Positions 21,225 to 49,135 of a DNA stretch of 64,000 bases are shown piece after piece. Source of the DNA: Candidatus Kaiserbacteria bacterium (GTDB lineage Bacteria; Patescibacteriota; Minisyncoccia; Phycocordibacterales; UBA918); NCBI GenBank assembly GCA_020428795.1, contig JAGQME010000002.1, positions 3,374 to 67,373 on the forward strand, read 5' to 3'. Position 1 is the stretch's first letter; the number at the start of each line of letters is the position of its first letter. Under the pieces are notes generated by a model that ran no database searches, was not told the origin of the DNA, and was given only the letters and a program-made list of their open reading frames with translations. The translations under genes and the position numbers were made by a program.

Positions 21225-23019
21225 AGACAGGGAAGAGAAAGGGTTGCCAAAATTAGGAAAAATCGAAACTAACTGGAATCTAAAAAAACATTTTTACAAA
21301 TCAGATAAAGATCCGCAAATCAAACAAGATGAGTTGGATTATCAAAAAGCGATTGCTAAGTTTCGTAAAGAATTTTATGGTAAACAATTTACGACTTCGA
21401 CTGAAAAATTACTAAAAGCTCTAACAAAATATGAGAATTTAATTAATAAATTTCAAGCTGACAAGATTCTCAGGTATTTCTCATTTCGTTCCACTCTAAA
21501 CGTAAATGATGATGTTGCCAACAAAATGCTAGCTCAGTATTCTGAGAAGTTTAGAACCCTGTCCAACGACTTACTTTTTTTCAAACTAGAGCTAGGAAAA
21601 ATTCCTAAAAAACAACAAAAAATTTACTTAGCTGATCCCAAACTAGCGGATTATCGTTACTTTCTTTCAACCTTGTTTAAAAATGCTGAACATCATTTAT
21701 CTGAGCCAGAAGAAAAGATTTTAACTCTTAGAGCCAACACTTCGGCAGAAATGTGGTACGAGGCAGTTGAGAAAATAATTTCCAATCGAGACATAAAGTT
21801 TAAAGGGAAAACTATCAAAATCCCCGAGGCCTTAGAAATGATTAGCCTGCTTAAGTGGCACGAAAAAGATAAGCTATGGAACCTTATTTTGGATGAGTTA
21901 ATACAGATTAGTGAAGTAGCCGAACACGAACTCACTGCCATTGTTAACCACGAAAAAGTCTCAGATAAATTAAGGGGTTTTAAAAAACCTTACTCGGCTT
22001 CAATCTTAAGTAACGAAAATAGCGAGAGCTCAGTTGAGGCCTTGGTTGACACCATCACTAAAGAAGGTTTTAAACTGAGTCGTCGTTTCTACAAACTAAA
22101 GGCTAAGATTCATAATCAAAAAACCATCCCCTACGTCAATCGTTATGATCCAATTGGTAAACTACCTAACCCAACCTTCCTAGATTCAGTTGAGATTTGT
22201 CGTGACACCTTTTATTCAGTTAAATCTGATTACGGCGAGATTTTTGACAGACTACTAAAGAACGGACAAGTTGATGTTTATCCCAAAAAGGGTAAACGAG
22301 GCGGCGCTTTTATGGCGGGTACCTTGAATCTACCGACCTTTGTTATGCTTAATCATACCAATGATCTAAAATCACAGGCTACGCTAGCTCATGAGATGGG
22401 TCACGCCGTACACGCTGAAAGAAGCAAGGGACAAAGAGCTATATATGAATCTTTTTCTACCACTACCGCCGAAACAGCCAGCACCCTGTTTGAACAACTG
22501 GTTTTAGACAGAATCTTCGAACGATTATCTAATAAGGATAAAGTTATTTTCTTACACGACAAATTGAATCGGGATATTGCCACCGTACAAAGGCAAATCG
22601 CTTGTTTTAACTTTGAACTGGAGATGCACAACCATATCCGTGAGAATGGGGTAGCCACCAAAACCGAACTGGCCACCATGATGAATAAACATCTCAAAGC
22701 CTACCTTGGTGAAGCTGTCTCACTTACTGAAAAAGATGGGTATTTTTACGTTGCTTGGCATCATATAAGATACGGATTTTATGTTTACACCTATACTTAC
22801 GGACACCTGATTAGTAACTTAATGGCCCAAAATTATCAAAAAGACAAAAACTACGTAAATCAAATTGATAAGTTTTTGTGTTCTGGTGGCGTGGATAACG
22901 TAGACAATATCTTTAAATCTATCGGGATAAACACTAAAAGCAACCAGACTTTTCTCCACAGCCTAAAAACTCAAGACAGAGAACTAAAAACTCTAGAATC
23001 ACTTTTGAAAAATAAGTAA
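21190..23019 (+). CDS. pepF: oligoendopeptidase F (M3B family)
   Basis: HEMGHAVH zinc motif and ~600 aa length. The start is uncertain: ATG at 21166 or 21190 (overlapping the upstream gene) or TTG at about 21244. Confidence 0.85.
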   Translation: MTSKNLEKPNFKDREEKGLPKLGKIETNWNLKKHFYKSDKDPQIKQDELDYQKAIAKFRKEFYGKQFTTSTEKLLKALTKYENLINKFQADKILRYFSFRSTLNVNDDVANKMLAQYSEKFRTLSNDLLFFKLELGKIPKKQQKIYLADPKLADYRYFLSTLFKNAEHHLSEPEEKILTLRANTSAEMWYEAVEKIISNRDIKFKGKTIKIPEALEMISLLKWHEKDKLWNLILDELIQISEVAEHELTAIVNHEKVSDKLRGFKKPYSASILSNENSESSVEALVDTITKEGFKLSRRFYKLKAKIHNQKTIPYVNRYDPIGKLPNPTFLDSVEICRDTFYSVKSDYGEIFDRLLKNGQVDVYPKKGKRGGAFMAGTLNLPTFVMLNHTNDLKSQATLAHEMGHAVHAERSKGQRAIYESFSTTTAETASTLFEQLVLDRIFERLSNKDKVIFLHDKLNRDIATVQRQIACFNFELEMHNHIRENGVATKTELATMMNKHLKAYLGEAVSLTEKDGYFYVAWHHIRYGFYVYTYTYGHLISNLMAQNYQKDKNYVNQIDKFLCSGGVDNVDNIFKSIGINTKSNQTFLHSLKTQDRELKTLESLLKNK

Positions 23020-39703: not shown

Positions 39704-41383
39704 ATGAATGAAATTGATCCAATATATTGTTCTTGGGACACCTCCTCAAAACTGATGATTTTCTCAGACAATGTTTTTGGTGGTTTTATCTACTACTCAC
39801 ATTTATTACCAGTAATTTGTGTATTGTCATTTATTATTTTGCTACTTTGGCAAAATAGACGTGACCCAATAATTAACTCATTGGTGATAGTTTCTATATC
39901 ATTCACACTTTGGAGCTTAAGTGATTTGGTGCTATGGGCTACGGCCAACCCTGACCACACAATGTTTTTCTGGTCAATCATTATCCACTTTGAGCTATTA
40001 ATATACATCGCTTCTTTATATTTCATACACTACTATGTAAGCCATAGGCCTCCTAAAATTTACGTTGAACTAATACTCTTGGCCGCCTATGTTCCAGTTG
40101 CTATTTTTGCTCATACTAGTCTAAATTTAGTAGCTTTTGACTACACTAATTGCTGGCGAGAAGCGATTGAGGGACCTCTGCTGGCCTACGTCTATCTCTT
40201 TGAGATATGTATAGCTGTCTATATTTTAACTTATGGAATTTACCATGTTCTTAAAAGACCGGTCTCTTTAAACAAAAGGGAGATGCTGTTAGCGACCGCC
40301 GGCACATTCCTATTTCTAATATCATTTTCTTTAGGAAACATCCTCGGCACACTTGAGGTTGACTGGGAGTTGGGTCAATATGGACTTTTTGCTATTCCAT
40401 TCTTTATTGGTTTACTTTCCTACCTGATTATCAAATACAAAGGAGTCGAGGTTAAATTATTTAGTACAGAGGTACTGGTAGTGGCTATTTTAATATTAGT
40501 AGCCTCAATCTTATTTATAAGAAAAATAGAAAATGTAAGAATTGTTACTTTTATAACTATATTTCTGATTACTAATTTAGGTATTTTCTTGGTAAGAAGT
40601 GTTAGACGTGAAATTAAACAACGTGAACAAATTGAAAAATTAGCTAAAAATTTAGCTAGAGCAAATAAAAGACTTAAGGAAATAGACAAACTCAAATCTG
40701 AATTTGTATCAATTGCTTCACATCAACTCCGTAGCCCACTAACAACCATCCGAGGCTTTACCTCTATGCTACTCGAAGGTTCATTTGGAAAACTTAATCC
40801 CAAAGTGCAAACTGCTGTAGAACACATAGCTGACTCTAGCAAGTTCATGGCTTCGTCGGTAGAGGATTATCTTAACGTATCTAGAATCGAATCTGGCAAC
40901 ATGAAGTACGAGTCAACTGACTTTAATCTTAAAACAGAGACTGAACAGGTCGTGGAAGATTTCAGACAACAAGCTACCAAGAAAGGTATTTTGTTGATGT
41001 TTAAAAGTGATCTAAATAAAAAAGGGATTGTTCACGCTGACGTAGGTAAAGTTAGACAAATCCTCCATAACTTAATAAACAACGCCATTAAATACACTCC
41101 AAGAGGTAGCGTAACGCTACTTTTGCATGACAGCCCGAAGTTAAAGAAAGTTTACCTAGATGTGATTGACACCGGTATCGGCATCAGTGACGAAGCTCTG
41201 GAGCATTTATTTGCCAAATTCGAAAGAGCTGCCAACGCTCATCACATAAACGTAGTCGGGACTGGTCTGGGTCTCTATGTAGCTAGAAAAATGGCTCAAG
41301 ATATGGGTGGTAATATTACTGCCAAATCAGATGGGGAAAACTGTGGCTCTGTATTCACACTCGAATTACCACTAGAGATGTGA
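39704..41383 (+). CDS. sensor histidine kinase with a polytopic N-terminal sensor region
   Basis: Seven or more TM helices, then HisKA (SIASHQLRSPLTTIRGF) and HATPase_c (N, G1 DTGIGI, G2 GTGLGL boxes). No response regulator is adjacent. Confidence 0.85.
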   Translation: MNEIDPIYCSWDTSSKLMIFSDNVFGGFIYYSHLLPVICVLSFIILLLWQNRRDPIINSLVIVSISFTLWSLSDLVLWATANPDHTMFFWSIIIHFELLIYIASLYFIHYYVSHRPPKIYVELILLAAYVPVAIFAHTSLNLVAFDYTNCWREAIEGPLLAYVYLFEICIAVYILTYGIYHVLKRPVSLNKREMLLATAGTFLFLISFSLGNILGTLEVDWELGQYGLFAIPFFIGLLSYLIIKYKGVEVKLFSTEVLVVAILILVASILFIRKIENVRIVTFITIFLITNLGIFLVRSVRREIKQREQIEKLAKNLARANKRLKEIDKLKSEFVSIASHQLRSPLTTIRGFTSMLLEGSFGKLNPKVQTAVEHIADSSKFMASSVEDYLNVSRIESGNMKYESTDFNLKTETEQVVEDFRQQATKKGILLMFKSDLNKKGIVHADVGKVRQILHNLINNAIKYTPRGSVTLLLHDSPKLKKVYLDVIDTGIGISDEALEHLFAKFERAANAHHINVVGTGLGLYVARKMAQDMGGNITAKSDGENCGSVFTLELPLEM

Positions 41384-45676: not shown

Positions 45677-46294
45677 ATGATTAACACCTTTACTACCGAA
45701 AAAATAATCTCTGAGGTGAAGAAACTGCTTTATTTATACAGTCTCAAACAAACCATTCGCTACGGTCAGAGCAGAGACAAGAATGATTACACTGAGTCGG
45801 TGGCCGATCATGTTTACGGTATGCATTTAATTAGTGACTATTTTTTACCTCTGGAAGACCCTGACTATAAAATGAACAAGACCAGAATACAAGAACTGAT
45901 TACTTGGCACGATATTGTAGAAGTCGAAACCGGTGATATACCAAGAGTGAGAAAAACCCAAAAAGACAATGACTATGAACTGATCGCTATCAAGGAAGTG
46001 GTCCAGAAAGCTCCTGATTCTTTAAAACTGATCATAAAAGAACTCACCACCGAATACGAAACCCAGACAACTCCCGAATCAAGATTTGTAAAGGCCATAG
46101 ATAAAATTGAACCACTAATTCATTGTTATCACCCTTTAGGAAAATTTACTCAACAAAATTTGAAACTGACTGTCGAAAGTTCCCGTGAGGTTAAAGAAAA
46201 ATATATAGCAAATTTTCCGTACATAAAGCTATTCTCTGACACTCTTCATAAAGTTATGGAGAGTGAGGGGTATTTTTACAAAAATAAAATATGA
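45677..46294 (+). CDS. HD-domain phosphohydrolase (YfbR-like), tandem paralog 1
   Basis: VADHVYGMH and WHDIVEVETGD motifs. Confidence 0.7.
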   Translation: MINTFTTEKIISEVKKLLYLYSLKQTIRYGQSRDKNDYTESVADHVYGMHLISDYFLPLEDPDYKMNKTRIQELITWHDIVEVETGDIPRVRKTQKDNDYELIAIKEVVQKAPDSLKLIIKELTTEYETQTTPESRFVKAIDKIEPLIHCYHPLGKFTQQNLKLTVESSREVKEKYIANFPYIKLFSDTLHKVMESEGYFYKNKI

Positions 46295-46905
46295 TAGATA
46301 AATTTGATAAAGAGAAAATAATCTCTGAGGTGAAAAAACTCCAGTATTTATATCGCCTTAAGCAGGAGATTCGTTACAATTGTGTGAGGCCGACCTTGGA
46401 CCTGACAGAATCAGTGGCCGAACATGTTTATGGCATGCAAATTTTGGCTTTATACTTTTTACCACTTGAAAATCCGACCGGTGATTGGGATCGAGCCAAG
46501 ATATTCGAGATGATAACCATTCACGACATAGACGAGGTCGAAACCGGTGATATGTTGGGTTATCAGAAAACACCGGAAATAAGAGCCAAGGAAGCCAATG
46601 CTATGAAAATAGTAATCGACAATTCTCCGGAACACCTGAAAGCTCACTGGATGGAATTGGTTAATGAATACGAAGCTCTTACATCACCGGAAGCCAAGTT
46701 TGTAAAAGCAATTGATCGCTTTGAACCTTTAATCCACCTTTATACGGCTCATGGTAGGGAAATCTTAAAGAAAAATCACACCACCAGAAATCAATCACAA
46801 GGCCTTAAATATCCCTACGTTAAAGATTTTCCTTACATGAGTAAATTTACCTACGCCATTGATGAAGTAATGACCGAAGAGGGCTACTGGTGTGACGAAG
46901 ACTAG
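46291..46905 (+). CDS. HD-domain phosphohydrolase (YfbR-like), tandem paralog 2
   Basis: VAEHVYGMQ and IHDIDEVETGD. The N-terminus EKIISEVKKLQYLYRLKQEIRY is near-identical to paralog 1. Confidence 0.7.
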   Translation: MIDKFDKEKIISEVKKLQYLYRLKQEIRYNCVRPTLDLTESVAEHVYGMQILALYFLPLENPTGDWDRAKIFEMITIHDIDEVETGDMLGYQKTPEIRAKEANAMKIVIDNSPEHLKAHWMELVNEYEALTSPEAKFVKAIDRFEPLIHLYTAHGREILKKNHTTRNQSQGLKYPYVKDFPYMSKFTYAIDEVMTEEGYWCDED

Positions 46906-46932
46906 TCCTTATTACGTGCTACAATTTAAACA

Positions 46933-47670
46933 ATGAATCCAGCTACCGAATCATTTGCCATCAAAACCGAAGTCTTTGAGGGACCTTTGGAGCTTCTACT
47001 TGAATTGGTTGAAAGACGAAAACTATTGATCAATGACATCTCTTTAGCCAGTGTGACTGACGAATATATGCGTACCGTAAGTGACATGCAAGAGCGCTCA
47101 CTACCAAACACCACCCAATTCATACAGTTGGCTGCCACACTTTTGTTGATTAAATCAAAATCACTTTTGCCGGTTTTAAAACTAACCGAAGAAGAGGAGG
47201 AAGGAATAGACGACCTAGAAGAGAGACTGCGTCGCTACAAAATATTTAAAGACGCTGCTGAAACTCTAAAGACTCAGTTTGGAGTCAATATTATGCATGA
47301 AAAGCAATACGTAGCCGATAAAGTACCTTTGTTTGTAACCGACTCCTACACCACCTTAGAGTCTCTTCGTCAAGCCATTGGTGACGTCCTACAAAATCTT
47401 CCTTACAAAGAAGTTAAACCCAAGGTACAGGTAAAAAAAGTTATTTCACTCGAAGACATGATCAGTCGACTCCAATCAAGGATAGAAAAACAACTAAAAC
47501 TAACTTTTAGTGAATTACTAGAAGACAACTACGAGCGGACCCACGTCATCGTTGGTTTCTTAGCTGTACTGGAGTCTGTTAAGCAAGGTAGTCTCTTAGT
47601 GGCCCAGACTGAGCGCTTTGCCGATATACACCTAGAACAAGATCGTCCGCAATTACCAAAATATTATTAA
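46933..47670 (+). CDS. scpA: segregation and condensation protein A
   Basis: FEGPLELLLELVERRKLLINDISLASVTDEY. Confidence 0.8.
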   Translation: MNPATESFAIKTEVFEGPLELLLELVERRKLLINDISLASVTDEYMRTVSDMQERSLPNTTQFIQLAATLLLIKSKSLLPVLKLTEEEEEGIDDLEERLRRYKIFKDAAETLKTQFGVNIMHEKQYVADKVPLFVTDSYTTLESLRQAIGDVLQNLPYKEVKPKVQVKKVISLEDMISRLQSRIEKQLKLTFSELLEDNYERTHVIVGFLAVLESVKQGSLLVAQTERFADIHLEQDRPQLPKYY

Positions 47671-48059
47671 GAAAGGGCTAGAGGGAATTGTTGTTTTCAA
47701 TTACAAAACAGACTGTTACTAAACAACAACTCTGCTTGAAAAATAGTATACCTATTTTCTTCTTTACCAAGCAAAGAATCAAATACAGTAATAGTTTGAT
47801 CCTCTTTCGAACTAGTTATTAACTGGGTAAATTGTTTAGAAAGTTTGTTTAGTTGAGTGATAGAAAGTTTGCTTTTATTTAGTCTTACCATATAAAGATA
47901 CTAGCAAACCTTTCAATCGATTGAAAGGTTTGGGGCGTAGGTATTTTTAGTATCTGATGCCTCTTATGCTGGAGTTTTGTGCTGGAGTCTTGGAATCTAA
48001 GGTATCAGGCACAAAAAAACCGCATACATTTTGGTTTAATCTAAACAAAATCATTCATT

Positions 48060-48475
48060 GATTAGTCAAACCGCAGTTGCGGCCGTGGTGCGGACGGAGC
48101 TCACGCCCCGTCCGCCCGATTGGGGGGGGATTTTGGGGACTTTACTTTACCCCGGACTCTTGCCGTTGGCAAGAAATGCCATGGGTTCCTCCCTTGTTAG
48201 TGGTTTCATTGTCCGACCCCGACCCCTGACGACAGGGGTCGGGATGGTCGGCGTCGGCCGGTGAGGCTAGGCCAGCGCCGCCCGCCGCCGGCTCGACCGA
48301 TCGCGCGAGGGATCGCTCGCCCACGGCGGGCGGGCCTTGGCGTCGGACGGCGAAGAGCACATGTAGGCGCCGAAAATCAGTGCGGAAGTGGGGGGTGCGT
48401 GTTCCATCATCGTGGTCTCCTTGTTTAGTCGCCCTCAGCCCTTTACCTTCGGTAAAAGGTGGGCGACCTCAATAT
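48060..48475. other. GC-rich island of unknown identity (~415 bp, roughly 70% GC) inside the scpA-scpB spacer
   Basis: Abrupt composition shift read directly. Several stable hairpins are present: gaccccgacccctg-acga-caggggtcggg, gcggacgg...ccgtccgc, and gtcgccc...gggcgac. A minus-strand 47-codon ORF (48267..48410) has an AAGGAGA SD five nt from its ATG. Confidence 0.4.
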
Positions 48476-48598
48476 ACTAACACAATAAAAATAACTGTCA
48501 AGCAGTTTTCAACAGCCTAACTTTAGAGCAAATTAGACTAATTTCGATATACCCAGAAAATGATTAAAAGGCCTTATTTTATGGTATTATTCTGCTAT

Positions 48599-49135
48599 AT
48601 GAAACTCGATCTACAAATCGAAGGTTTGCTTTTTTATAAAGCCTCACCAATAAAGATAAAGGCTCTATCTAAACAATTGGCGGTTGAGGAGAGTGAGGTC
48701 AAGGTGGCGGCCGAGGCGCTCAAAGAGCGCCTCGGCCAAGGTGCCACCAGACTAATTATGACCGAGACTGATTTGGAATTAGTGACCGCCCCAGAGCTTG
48801 ACCCTCTAATTGAAACTATTCGTCGTGATGAAATGAAGCGTGACATTGGTAAAGCCGGCGCTGAGACTTTGGCTATTATTCTATACAAGGGTCCAGTCAC
48901 TCGTTCTGAGATAGACCGAGTTCGCGGTGTGAATTCATCTTTTATTCTCCGTAATCTACAGATCAGAGGTTTGGTAGCTAGGGTTCAGTCGGACCGAGGC
49001 AACGAATACAATATCACTCCAAATCTACTGGCTCACCTCGGAATTGAAAGCAAAAATGATCTACCGGAATACAGTAGTGTCTTAGACACCTTGGAAAAAT
49101 TTGAAGCAGAAGTTGCCAAGGAAGCCTCTGAATAA
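48599..49135 (+). CDS. scpB: segregation and condensation protein B
   Basis: IEGLLFYKASPIKIKAL N-terminal winged-helix and two wHTH repeats. The start is taken at MKLDLQ. Confidence 0.8.
   Translation: MKLDLQIEGLLFYKASPIKIKALSKQLAVEESEVKVAAEALKERLGQGATRLIMTETDLELVTAPELDPLIETIRRDEMKRDIGKAGAETLAIILYKGPVTRSEIDRVRGVNSSFILRNLQIRGLVARVQSDRGNEYNITPNLLAHLGIESKNDLPEYSSVLDTLEKFEAEVAKEASE

Follow-up and report, generated by a model that had tools for sequence, protein, structure and literature searches.

Introduction

The described systems closest to the element considered here are dual-function small RNAs (sRNAs), examples of which are SgrS/SgrT, RNAIII/hld, and SR1/SR1P, along with horizontally acquired islets and integron-like capture platforms. 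The element lies between the genes scpA and scpB in a 64-kb stretch of DNA (hereafter the window) from Candidatus Kaiserbacteria, a member of the Patescibacteria or Candidate Phyla Radiation (CPR), and takes the form of a GC-rich island in a genome of about 40% GC; it recalls the first of these systems in its predicted layout, the second in its alien composition, and the third in the conserved promoter that faces it. All coordinates are window positions unless a locus is named. With moderate confidence, the GC-rich core is read as the body of a minus-strand, lineage-specific, and probably horizontally replaced RNA gene, structured and bearing small open reading frames (ORFs), whose transcription, translation, ends, origin, and function are deduced from the letters of the DNA.

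Two strands of earlier work bear on this reading. In AT-rich genomes, the templates of structured RNAs form conspicuous long GC-rich intergenic regions (PMC8632094). Experiments have demonstrated natural competence in Saccharibacteria, and the com genes for DNA uptake are conserved across the Patescibacteria phyla (PMC10633639).

The GC-rich island and its authenticity

The island and its flanks are located as follows.

46933 to 47670, plus strand: scpA, the upstream flank (Pfam SMC_ScpA, E=5.8e-20)
48599 to 49135, plus strand: scpB, the downstream flank (Pfam SMC_ScpB, E=1e-32; start aligned with those of relatives)
48060 to 48470, minus strand: GC-rich core, body of the predicted RNA (61-65% GC overall, up to 81% over 100 nt)

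The ScpA protein is 100% identical to one held at NCBI under the name Candidatus Kaiserbacteria bacterium, and scpA is identical across contigs L001-L003. The gap of ~890 bp given in an earlier note on this DNA, which had been made by reading the sequence, stands when it is taken to the first in-frame ATG (48560; 889 bp) and lengthens to 928 bp when it is taken to ATG 48599, the one that matches residue 1 of the ScpB proteins of relatives. The left ~390 bp of the spacer are AT-rich, and the anomalous core that the note had pointed out is real and unique: 48050-48491 is the sole stretch of the 64 kb in which 200-nt windows exceed 58% GC, and the peak of 72.5% compares with a mean of 40.4% (standard deviation 4.8%). 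A G8 run lies inside the core at 48122-48129, likewise as described.

The island is neither an assembly artefact nor a chimera, because an independent assembly of another strain holds the island together with both junctions. This assembly, contig L002, comes from another sample, lies 12 single-nucleotide polymorphisms (SNPs) from the window, covers 46483-48946, and shows only two differences within the island, which leaves very little room for the worry voiced in the earlier note that the GC block might be a contaminant or chimera. Neither the window nor any of the fetched loci yielded a second copy of the island.

A predicted minus-strand transcription unit

RNA-level structure favours the minus strand as the transcribed one. 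All hairpins quoted in the earlier note are present, and each strand forms a more stable fold than its dinucleotide shuffles do (z=-4.6 for the plus strand and z=-6.5 for the minus strand, with -6.2 to -6.5 across minus-strand runs). Five hairpins sum to -140.1 kcal/mol on the minus strand versus -127.7 kcal/mol on the plus strand, and four of the five are more stable on the minus strand because the C-A mismatches of the plus strand are G-U pairs there. The sole stem SNP between strains (48431 G>A in L002, within hairpin D) costs 1.9 kcal/mol on the minus strand versus 5.4 kcal/mol on the plus strand, as it changes a G-C into a G-U pair and keeps the pairing on the minus strand only. The favoured strand is also the one on which the earlier note had placed a 47-codon ORF and the one served by a promoter-like sequence, and a consensus scan found no promoter-like site on the plus strand of the island. 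Read along the minus strand, the predicted unit comprises the following features.

48474 to 48501, minus strand: sigma-70-type promoter TTGACA-16-(TG)TTAGTAT, directed into the island (consensus scan; 10/12 matches plus TG before the -10)
48428 to 48468, minus strand: hairpin D, 5'-terminal, GGTCGCCC...GGGCGAC (-25.0 kcal/mol on the minus strand versus -22.1 kcal/mol on the plus strand)
48267 to 48410, minus strand: ORF1, 47 codons (Shine-Dalgarno (SD) sequence AAGGAGA at 48416-48422, 5 nt before the ATG)
48212 to 48253, minus strand: hairpin B, between ORF1 and ORF2, CCCGACCCCTG-NNNN-CAGGGGTCGGG (11-bp perfect stem, ~-32 kcal/mol)
48147 to 48182, minus strand: ORF2, 11 codons, MAFLANGKSPG (SD tract AAGGGAGGAA at 48186-48195, 3 nt before the ATG)
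48090 to 48115, minus strand: hairpin A, a GUGA loop on an 11-bp stem that includes one G-U pair (-27.4 kcal/mol on the minus strand versus -22.8 kcal/mol on the plus strand, where an A-C mismatch replaces the G-U pair)
48013 to 48019, minus strand: U7 run, the farthest point at which the island transcript could plausibly end (read from the sequence)

The promoter, with its -35 at 48501-48496 and its -10 at 48479-48474, ends 6 nt ahead of the GC-rich block, which puts the predicted transcription start (+1) at the base of hairpin D (48468-48428). The opening bases of this hairpin, GGTCG, correspond to a GGT(T)CG motif common to relatives. Beyond hairpin D, the minus strand presents in order AAGGAGA, ORF1, hairpin B (with an outer CCGAC/GTCGG extension), TAACAAGGGAGGAA, ORF2, and hairpin A, and it closes with a further small hairpin, U-rich in its tail, and U7. 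In this genome, the antisense promoter would give rise to an RNA of ~400-460 nt, running from ~48468 down to ~48075-48012, that would carry a stable 5' hairpin, SD-led ORFs of 47 and 11 codons, and very stable hairpins between and after them. Such a structured small-ORF RNA would be of the dual-function sRNA or micropeptide mRNA type.

ORF1 and its AAGGAGA tract are found exactly where the earlier note had put them. The peptide starts with MMEHAPPTSALIFGAYMCSSPSDAK, ends in ...AALA, and comprises a hydrophobic stretch of ~13 residues, with no transmembrane helix, followed by a charged tail rich in Pro, Ser, and Arg; its reading frame contains a long hairpin, E (48278-48333). GC content by codon position is 0.60/0.69/0.83, the third-position value (GC3) of 0.83 comparing with 0.38 in host genes, and a score modelled on the codon adaptation index (CAI-like) is 0.37 versus 0.70-0.76 for scpA, scpB, and a 64-codon ORF in the AT-rich part of the spacer. 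ORF2 contains a hairpin of its own, CTTGCC-GTT-GGCAAG (48159-48173). The minus strand of the island holds five ATGs, two of which are paired with an SD sequence at proper spacing; an SD-like motif is absent in 47 of the 53 window genes and in 46 of the 48 genes of the relatives' loci.

With regard to translation starts in the clade more generally, several housekeeping genes appear to have a -10 element directly before the start codon, which suggests leaderless mRNAs, and the accessory minus-strand ORFs of the spacers all have a strong SD sequence.

The scpA-scpB spacer in related genomes

Close relatives are loci with a ScpA 57-73% identical to that of the window, and promoter counts were taken over 11 loci; the clade members L010 and L011 were added by a scan of genome contigs with ScpA patterns that proved too general. 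The premise of the earlier note that scpA and scpB are normally adjacent applies mostly to distant Patescibacteria, where the gap is 0-39 bp in nine of 11 loci (107 and 301 bp in the other two), and fails in the close relatives, every one of which has a spacer, of 66-1618 bp. In nine of the 11 loci, scpB is preceded at 15-30 nt by a plus-strand extended -10 (TGnTAnnnT), and a canonical minus-strand promoter (TTGACA-N16-18-TAnnnT) lies 52-98 nt from scpB, again in nine of 11; the window has one of this pattern. All 14 matches to the latter pattern in 149 kb-strands of these loci fall in spacers. In the window, the plus-strand element is the following.

48582 to 48590, plus strand: scpB's own extended -10 TGGTATTAT, ending 8 nt before the scpB ATG

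Because all close relatives have a spacer with recurring scpB and antisense promoters, the split is clade-wide rather than an insertion peculiar to this genome, to which only the content of the spacer is specific. The earlier picture of a recent ~890-bp insertion that interrupts a co-transcribed operon is given up on these grounds, and what the comparison with relatives retains of it is that the island content is lineage-specific. Judged from the spacing of TGGTATTAT, the scpB mRNA would be leaderless or nearly so. In the arrangement proposed for the Kaiserbacteria clade, scpA and scpB would be separate transcription units, scpB being transcribed from its own extended -10, and a strong canonical sigma-70 promoter placed back-to-back with the scpB promoter would fire toward scpA and yield a product that differs between lineages.

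Antisense units were found in L005, L007, L008, L011, L090, L092, L093, and L094. Those of L007, L008, L090, L092, and L093 span 350-590 nt with SD-led short ORFs and follow one order: an ORF1 of 13-43 codons, a hairpin, a tiny ORF of 4-14 codons, and a conserved 3' domain (model R1) that consists of four helices and then an intrinsic terminator. The loci score 42-140 bits against R1; pairing extends to 94% of cells, compensatory changes occur in 12 of 25 pairs, and none of 500 shuffles was as good. The domain, which is ~130 nt long with the core GCGGWUCUUGAUWCCGAGAGACAAAAAUCAAGACAGG, has no Rfam match, and it is absent from L005, L011, and L094.

L008 4706-4832, L090 4275-4405, L092 3746-3876, L093 4209-4332, and L007 3747-3869, minus strand: R1 domain (covariance model)

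The unit of L005, the closest relative, is ORF-less and ~170 nt long, with 62% GC in a 41% locus, behind the same promoter type; that of L008 reaches 62% GC in a 44% locus and that of L011, with a 41-codon ORF, 57% in a 49% locus. Several of the relatives' antisense units exceed their genomes in GC content by 8-21 points, which fits the rule on structured-RNA templates (PMC8632094). On our own reading, small ORFs in relatives differ by synonymous changes, e.g., at IRGPT and MPNAPN.

Further observations concern the relatives alone. A family of ~100-110-aa proteins with CxxC followed by W[YF].F, lacking a Pfam domain, is encoded 3' of the antisense RNA unit in four relatives and was not found in the window.

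L008 4334-4633, L090 3857-4189, L093 3802-4125, and L094 3844-4167, minus strand: CxxC protein genes, each with its own TTGACA promoter and a strong SD sequence

The first small ORFs of L007 (3745-4092, minus strand) and L011 (4218-4875, minus strand) share N[FI]DIS[AT]G[AG], which coincides with a nucleotide motif (ATCTC..GCCGGCG-like) also present in L090, L092, L093, and L094. Lastly, at L005 134-298 (plus strand), upstream of a gene of the Asp/Asn-tRNA synthetase type, the T-box leader family matches with 44.8 bits (E=5e-7), which is below its gathering score of 93; the window gave no equivalent match.

Relationship of the island to the antisense units of relatives

The island has two of the traits by which the antisense units are recognised, namely a minus-strand promoter 50-100 nt upstream of scpB and SD-led short ORFs behind a 5' motif or hairpin. 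The GGT(T)CG motif occurs in five of nine loci (6-24 nt after the -10 in L005, L008, L011, and L090), and the layout ORF1-hairpin-(TAAC..)GGGAGG-tiny ORF2 is common to the island and the relatives; having been chosen after inspection of the same loci, the motif and the layout of SD-led ORFs are weak as a test of membership. At the peptide level, the N-terminal PPT[SA]A.I of ORF1 recurs at the corresponding place in ORF1 of L011, where the codons differ synonymously (p=0.054), and the C-terminal NG[KE]SP of ORF2 matches the tiny ORF of L008 at the same place (p=0.017), both p-values coming from shuffles with the maximum taken over the set. Homology between the island and the relatives' units is only suggestive; given the peptide similarities and the shared promoter, 5' motif, and layout, the chances that the island is a diverged or xenologous member of their kind of unit seem about even.

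Several results weigh against the reading of the island as a structured small-ORF RNA gene of this kind. The peptide similarities to the ORFs of L011 and L008 are short and borderline; an nhmmer profile of six relatives' units aligned with the island over the promoter alone (E=1.9), as did a pairwise alignment with L008 (z ~2); and the best R1 score obtained in the spacer of the window, even with the filters disabled, is 7 bits. The promoter and SD calls are consensus matches only, a scan of the unit for intrinsic terminators returned 0 canonical sites, annotation pipelines place no ORF in the island, and the exact 47-aa sequence is annotated nowhere. Only two near-identical copies of the island, those of the window and L002, are at hand. 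Finally, a GC content of 72-81% greatly exceeds what structure by itself tends to require where the genome has 40% GC.

Origin of the island and competing explanations

A horizontal origin is most likely because the composition and the SD use of the island are foreign to the host. Atypical composition, atypical codon usage, and a patchy distribution, all expected of horizontally acquired DNA, are present, with no donor in the sequence sets searched. The cargo would be a horizontal import or replacement, and its source may have been a higher-GC relative with the same kind of unit; both replacement by such a unit and capture of unrelated high-GC DNA are possible, and it seems unlikely that the sequence rose to 72-81% GC in situ within a 40% genome. 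Two of the candidates offered in the earlier note, an uncharacterised structured RNA and a horizontally acquired cassette, remain and are not mutually exclusive. The third, a ribozyme or self-splicing element, has no support, there being no Rfam match and no flanking exon halves. Likewise, a transposable element, miniature inverted-repeat transposable element (MITE), or repetitive extragenic palindrome (REP) finds no convincing flanking inverted or direct repeats and no target-site duplication.

The competing explanation that survives best, although it is on the unlikely side, is that the island is a functionless scrap of foreign high-GC DNA that entered a tolerant, variable spacer by illegitimate recombination; its SD sites, ORFs, and hairpins would be leftovers of gene starts and terminators of the donor that came to lie behind a native promoter by chance. 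Alien composition and codon usage, SD use foreign to an SD-less host, a similarity to the relatives' units that is borderline at most (neither nhmmer nor R1 being significant), and a weak period-3 GC signal of the sort typical of high-GC coding DNA (p ~0.03-0.04) all agree with such a scrap, and DNA uptake is plausible from the conserved com genes and the competence of Saccharibacteria (PMC10633639). A donor, nevertheless, is missing: the six island frames, concatenated, have no match among 5.8 billion proteins, blastn in distant mode gave no match among plasmids and phages, and searches with exact 24-31-mers drawn from three parts of the island came back empty for both JGI metagenome contigs and IMG/VR. 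A random scrap would also have to begin, as the GC block does, just a few nt from the +1 predicted for a conserved promoter and in the orientation of the most stable hairpins, to reproduce the ORF1-hairpin-ORF2 layout and the 5' GGT(T)CG of relatives, and to have its single stem SNP preserve structure on the minus strand.

The sister-strain contig L001 bears on the same question. Its positions 1-2098 align to 45898-47995 of the window at 99.4%, with 13 differences clustered in 47714-47967, after which the two part.

47995 to 47996, no strand: point of divergence, past which L001 runs into different DNA (alignment; no similarity past 47995)

Past this point, L001 2099-2799 has an AT-rich segment of 165 bp and then ~65% GC DNA that represents the 3' part of a prematurely ended mgtA-like P-type ATPase gene, 45-48% identical to cyanobacterial and rhizobial MgtA; it also has a pair of terminator-like hairpins that are GC-rich. 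That different high-GC DNA with a truncated gene lies at the same place is in line with a scrap and suggests that foreign DNA enters the scpA-scpB spacer. The contig, however, stops inside its divergent segment before rejoining scpB, and the segment could be a real alternative allele, an additional insertion, or part of a chimeric contig; look-ups of ScpB and the downstream carboxypeptidase for the right-hand side of the allele gave short contigs only. Derivation of the window allele by deletion from the L001 allele (mgtA and leader) was considered and is unsupported, as there is no significant similarity past 47995.

It is decidedly improbable that the island encodes a purely noncoding structured RNA in which the SD-like tracts are RNA motifs and the ORFs are incidental. 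Such an RNA might act as a regulator, as a scaffold, or as an antisense insulator that separates scpA from scpB, and it would account well for the strong fold z-scores and the strand asymmetry; moreover, the unit of L005 lacks ORFs (~170 nt, 62% GC, same promoter type), and the R1 domain of relatives is supported by covariation. What it leaves to coincidence are the two properly spaced SD and ATG pairs among only five minus-strand ATGs and the synonymous variation of the relatives' small ORFs (IRGPT, MPNAPN).

A very divergent housekeeping RNA, another known large noncoding RNA, or a type I toxin-antitoxin system is a far weaker candidate still, with very little probability left to it. The island is GC-rich and structured behind a strong promoter, the ...AALA end of ORF1 recalls transfer-messenger RNA (tmRNA) tags, and a short ORF with a structured 5' end is found in hok-like mRNAs. 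Nonetheless, in the 1.2 kb of 47500-48700 the only Rfam matches at E<=10 were two chance ones to eukaryotic snoRNA/sRNA families, and ARAGORN found 0 tRNA or tmRNA genes, in keeping with the failure of the earlier note to recognise RNase P RNA, tmRNA, or signal recognition particle (SRP) RNA by eye. The Rfam covariance models, joined by ARAGORN for tmRNA, place the island in none of RNase P RNA, tmRNA, SRP RNA, and 6S RNA, and they give no match to OLE, GOLLD, ROOL, HEARO/omega RNA, raiA, riboswitches, or group I/II introns. The element is absent from the locus in relatives, and it cannot therefore be an essential RNA. As for a type I toxin, the ~13 hydrophobic residues of ORF1 form no transmembrane helix, no antisense promoter overlaps it, and the scanned proteins have no PADLOC or Pfam match of that kind.

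Nor can the 47-aa product be counted as a conserved small protein: no homologue was found in the protein sets searched, and a phmmer search of 1.84 billion representatives returned one match, to four stretches of a 4127-aa protein, that was judged to be repetitive or of low complexity. A chimera or a contaminant introduced into a Kaiserbacteria contig during assembly, suggested by the abrupt composition change and the metagenomic nature of the assemblies, is the least credible explanation of all, as the whole island recurs with both junctions in two independent assemblies, which derive from different samples and strains, lie 12 SNPs apart, and differ at only two positions within it.

The AT-rich left part of the spacer

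The AT-rich left part, described in the earlier note as holding a 64-codon minus-strand ORF and local palindromes, does contain both.

47697 to 47891, minus strand: orphan 64-codon ORF, AT-rich (ORF list; NCBI hypothetical KC845_00875)
47898 to 47906, minus strand: extended -10-like element TGCTAGTAT (read from the sequence; not among the consensus-scan sites)
47905 to 47932, no strand: perfect 14+14 palindrome CAAACCTTTCAATC/GATTGAAAGGTTTG (100% complementary, 0 nt between arms)

The 64-codon ORF looks native in style, with host-like codon usage (CAI-like score 0.76 versus 0.70-0.75 for scpA and scpB). Its product matches only itself among 5.8 billion proteins, belongs to no Pfam, NCBIfam, or PADLOC family, and has no match below E=0.69 in a PDB sequence search; its AlphaFold 2 (AF2) model, with a predicted local distance difference test (pLDDT) score of 58, was too low in confidence for a fold search. 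As TGCTAGTAT ends 6 nt ahead of the ATG, the mRNA is probably leaderless. The palindrome, which is conserved in L001 and falls at the -35 position of the TGCTAGTAT promoter, is likely an operator, and the combination of operator and leaderless promoter at 47898-47932 possibly reflects autoregulation by a small DNA-binding protein. In L002 (1185-1409, equivalent to window 47667-47891, minus strand), a gene caller stretched the ORF to 74 codons through the TGA at 47697-47699, which is probably an artefact of an alternative-code model and not evidence of recoding.

The surrounding window

The neighbouring genes that were scanned are housekeeping genes (an HD-domain protein, ScpA, ScpB, and a D-Ala-D-Ala carboxypeptidase), and MraY-like and FtsW-like genes are syntenic farther downstream in relatives. 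Nearly all genes of the window lie on the plus strand up to ~56 kb. The 64 kb contain no tRNA gene and no Rfam family at the gathering score. The lowest-GC stretches are 21248-21459 and 40377-40730, with 200-nt minima of 26% and 23%, the latter stretch lying within a long ORF (39704-41383). An 8-mer, TTGTTTAG/CTAAACAA, has 10 copies in the 64 kb, six of them inside the 1-kb region 47719-48676 (47719, minus; 47832, plus; 47845, plus; 48041, minus; 48421, plus; 48669, minus); some of the copies fall within the 64-codon ORF and scpB, and one is part of the ribosome-binding context of ORF1.

Implications and comparison with known systems

If the island is indeed a structured small-ORF RNA gene, then scpA and scpB do not form an operon in this clade, the spacer between them hosts a fast-evolving, strongly promoted antisense gene, and micropeptide ORFs that use SD sequences exist in otherwise SD-less genomes; the locus would also offer a testable entry to the biology of small RNAs and small proteins, and to horizontal exchange, in the CPR. 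If it is merely captured junk, foreign high-GC DNA has become fixed in a reduced, 40% GC genome of the epibiont type. The island remains an orphan either way, and its immediate impact is hence moderate. A more far-reaching and quite unlikely proposal is that the spacer is a dedicated expression slot, in which a conserved and unusually strong outward promoter would serve exchangeable cargo, namely structured RNAs with SD-led micropeptide ORFs in genomes that have SD-less or leaderless genes of their own; in this species, the cargo would have been exchanged for DNA of much higher GC content. Were this true, the locus would represent an uncharacterised class of dual-function RNA/micropeptide genes, perhaps tied to chromosome segregation or to a specialised SD-dependent translation, and a natural capture-and-express locus in a CPR member.

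The antisense units of the relatives themselves are also among the nearest systems. The island differs from them in lacking the R1 3' domain, the intrinsic terminator, and the ~105-aa CxxC gene (present in four relatives), in its far higher GC content, and in having no significant nucleotide homology; it shares with them the slot, the strand, the promoter type, the distance from scpB, GGT(T)CG, and SD-led small ORFs in SD-less genomes. With the dual-function sRNAs it has no homology of sequence or structure, and it departs from them in a GC content 25-30 points above the genome and in being represented by two near-identical copies; in common are the stand-alone unit, the strong promoter, the length of a few hundred nt, the 5' hairpin, and the very short SD-led ORFs, all of which are predictions for the island. 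Compared with horizontally acquired islets, the island is small (only ~410 bp) and comes with no mobility gene, repeats, target-site duplication, or identifiable donor, but the GC jump, the alien codon usage and translation signals, the species-specific occurrence, and the strain-variable region are alike. Lastly, integron-like capture platforms differ in their machinery, as no integrase is encoded among the scanned neighbours, no attI or attC is present (no attC-like imperfect palindromes bound the island), and there is no cassette array; what the two have in common is a conserved resident promoter facing cargo that varies between lineages, and perhaps between strains.

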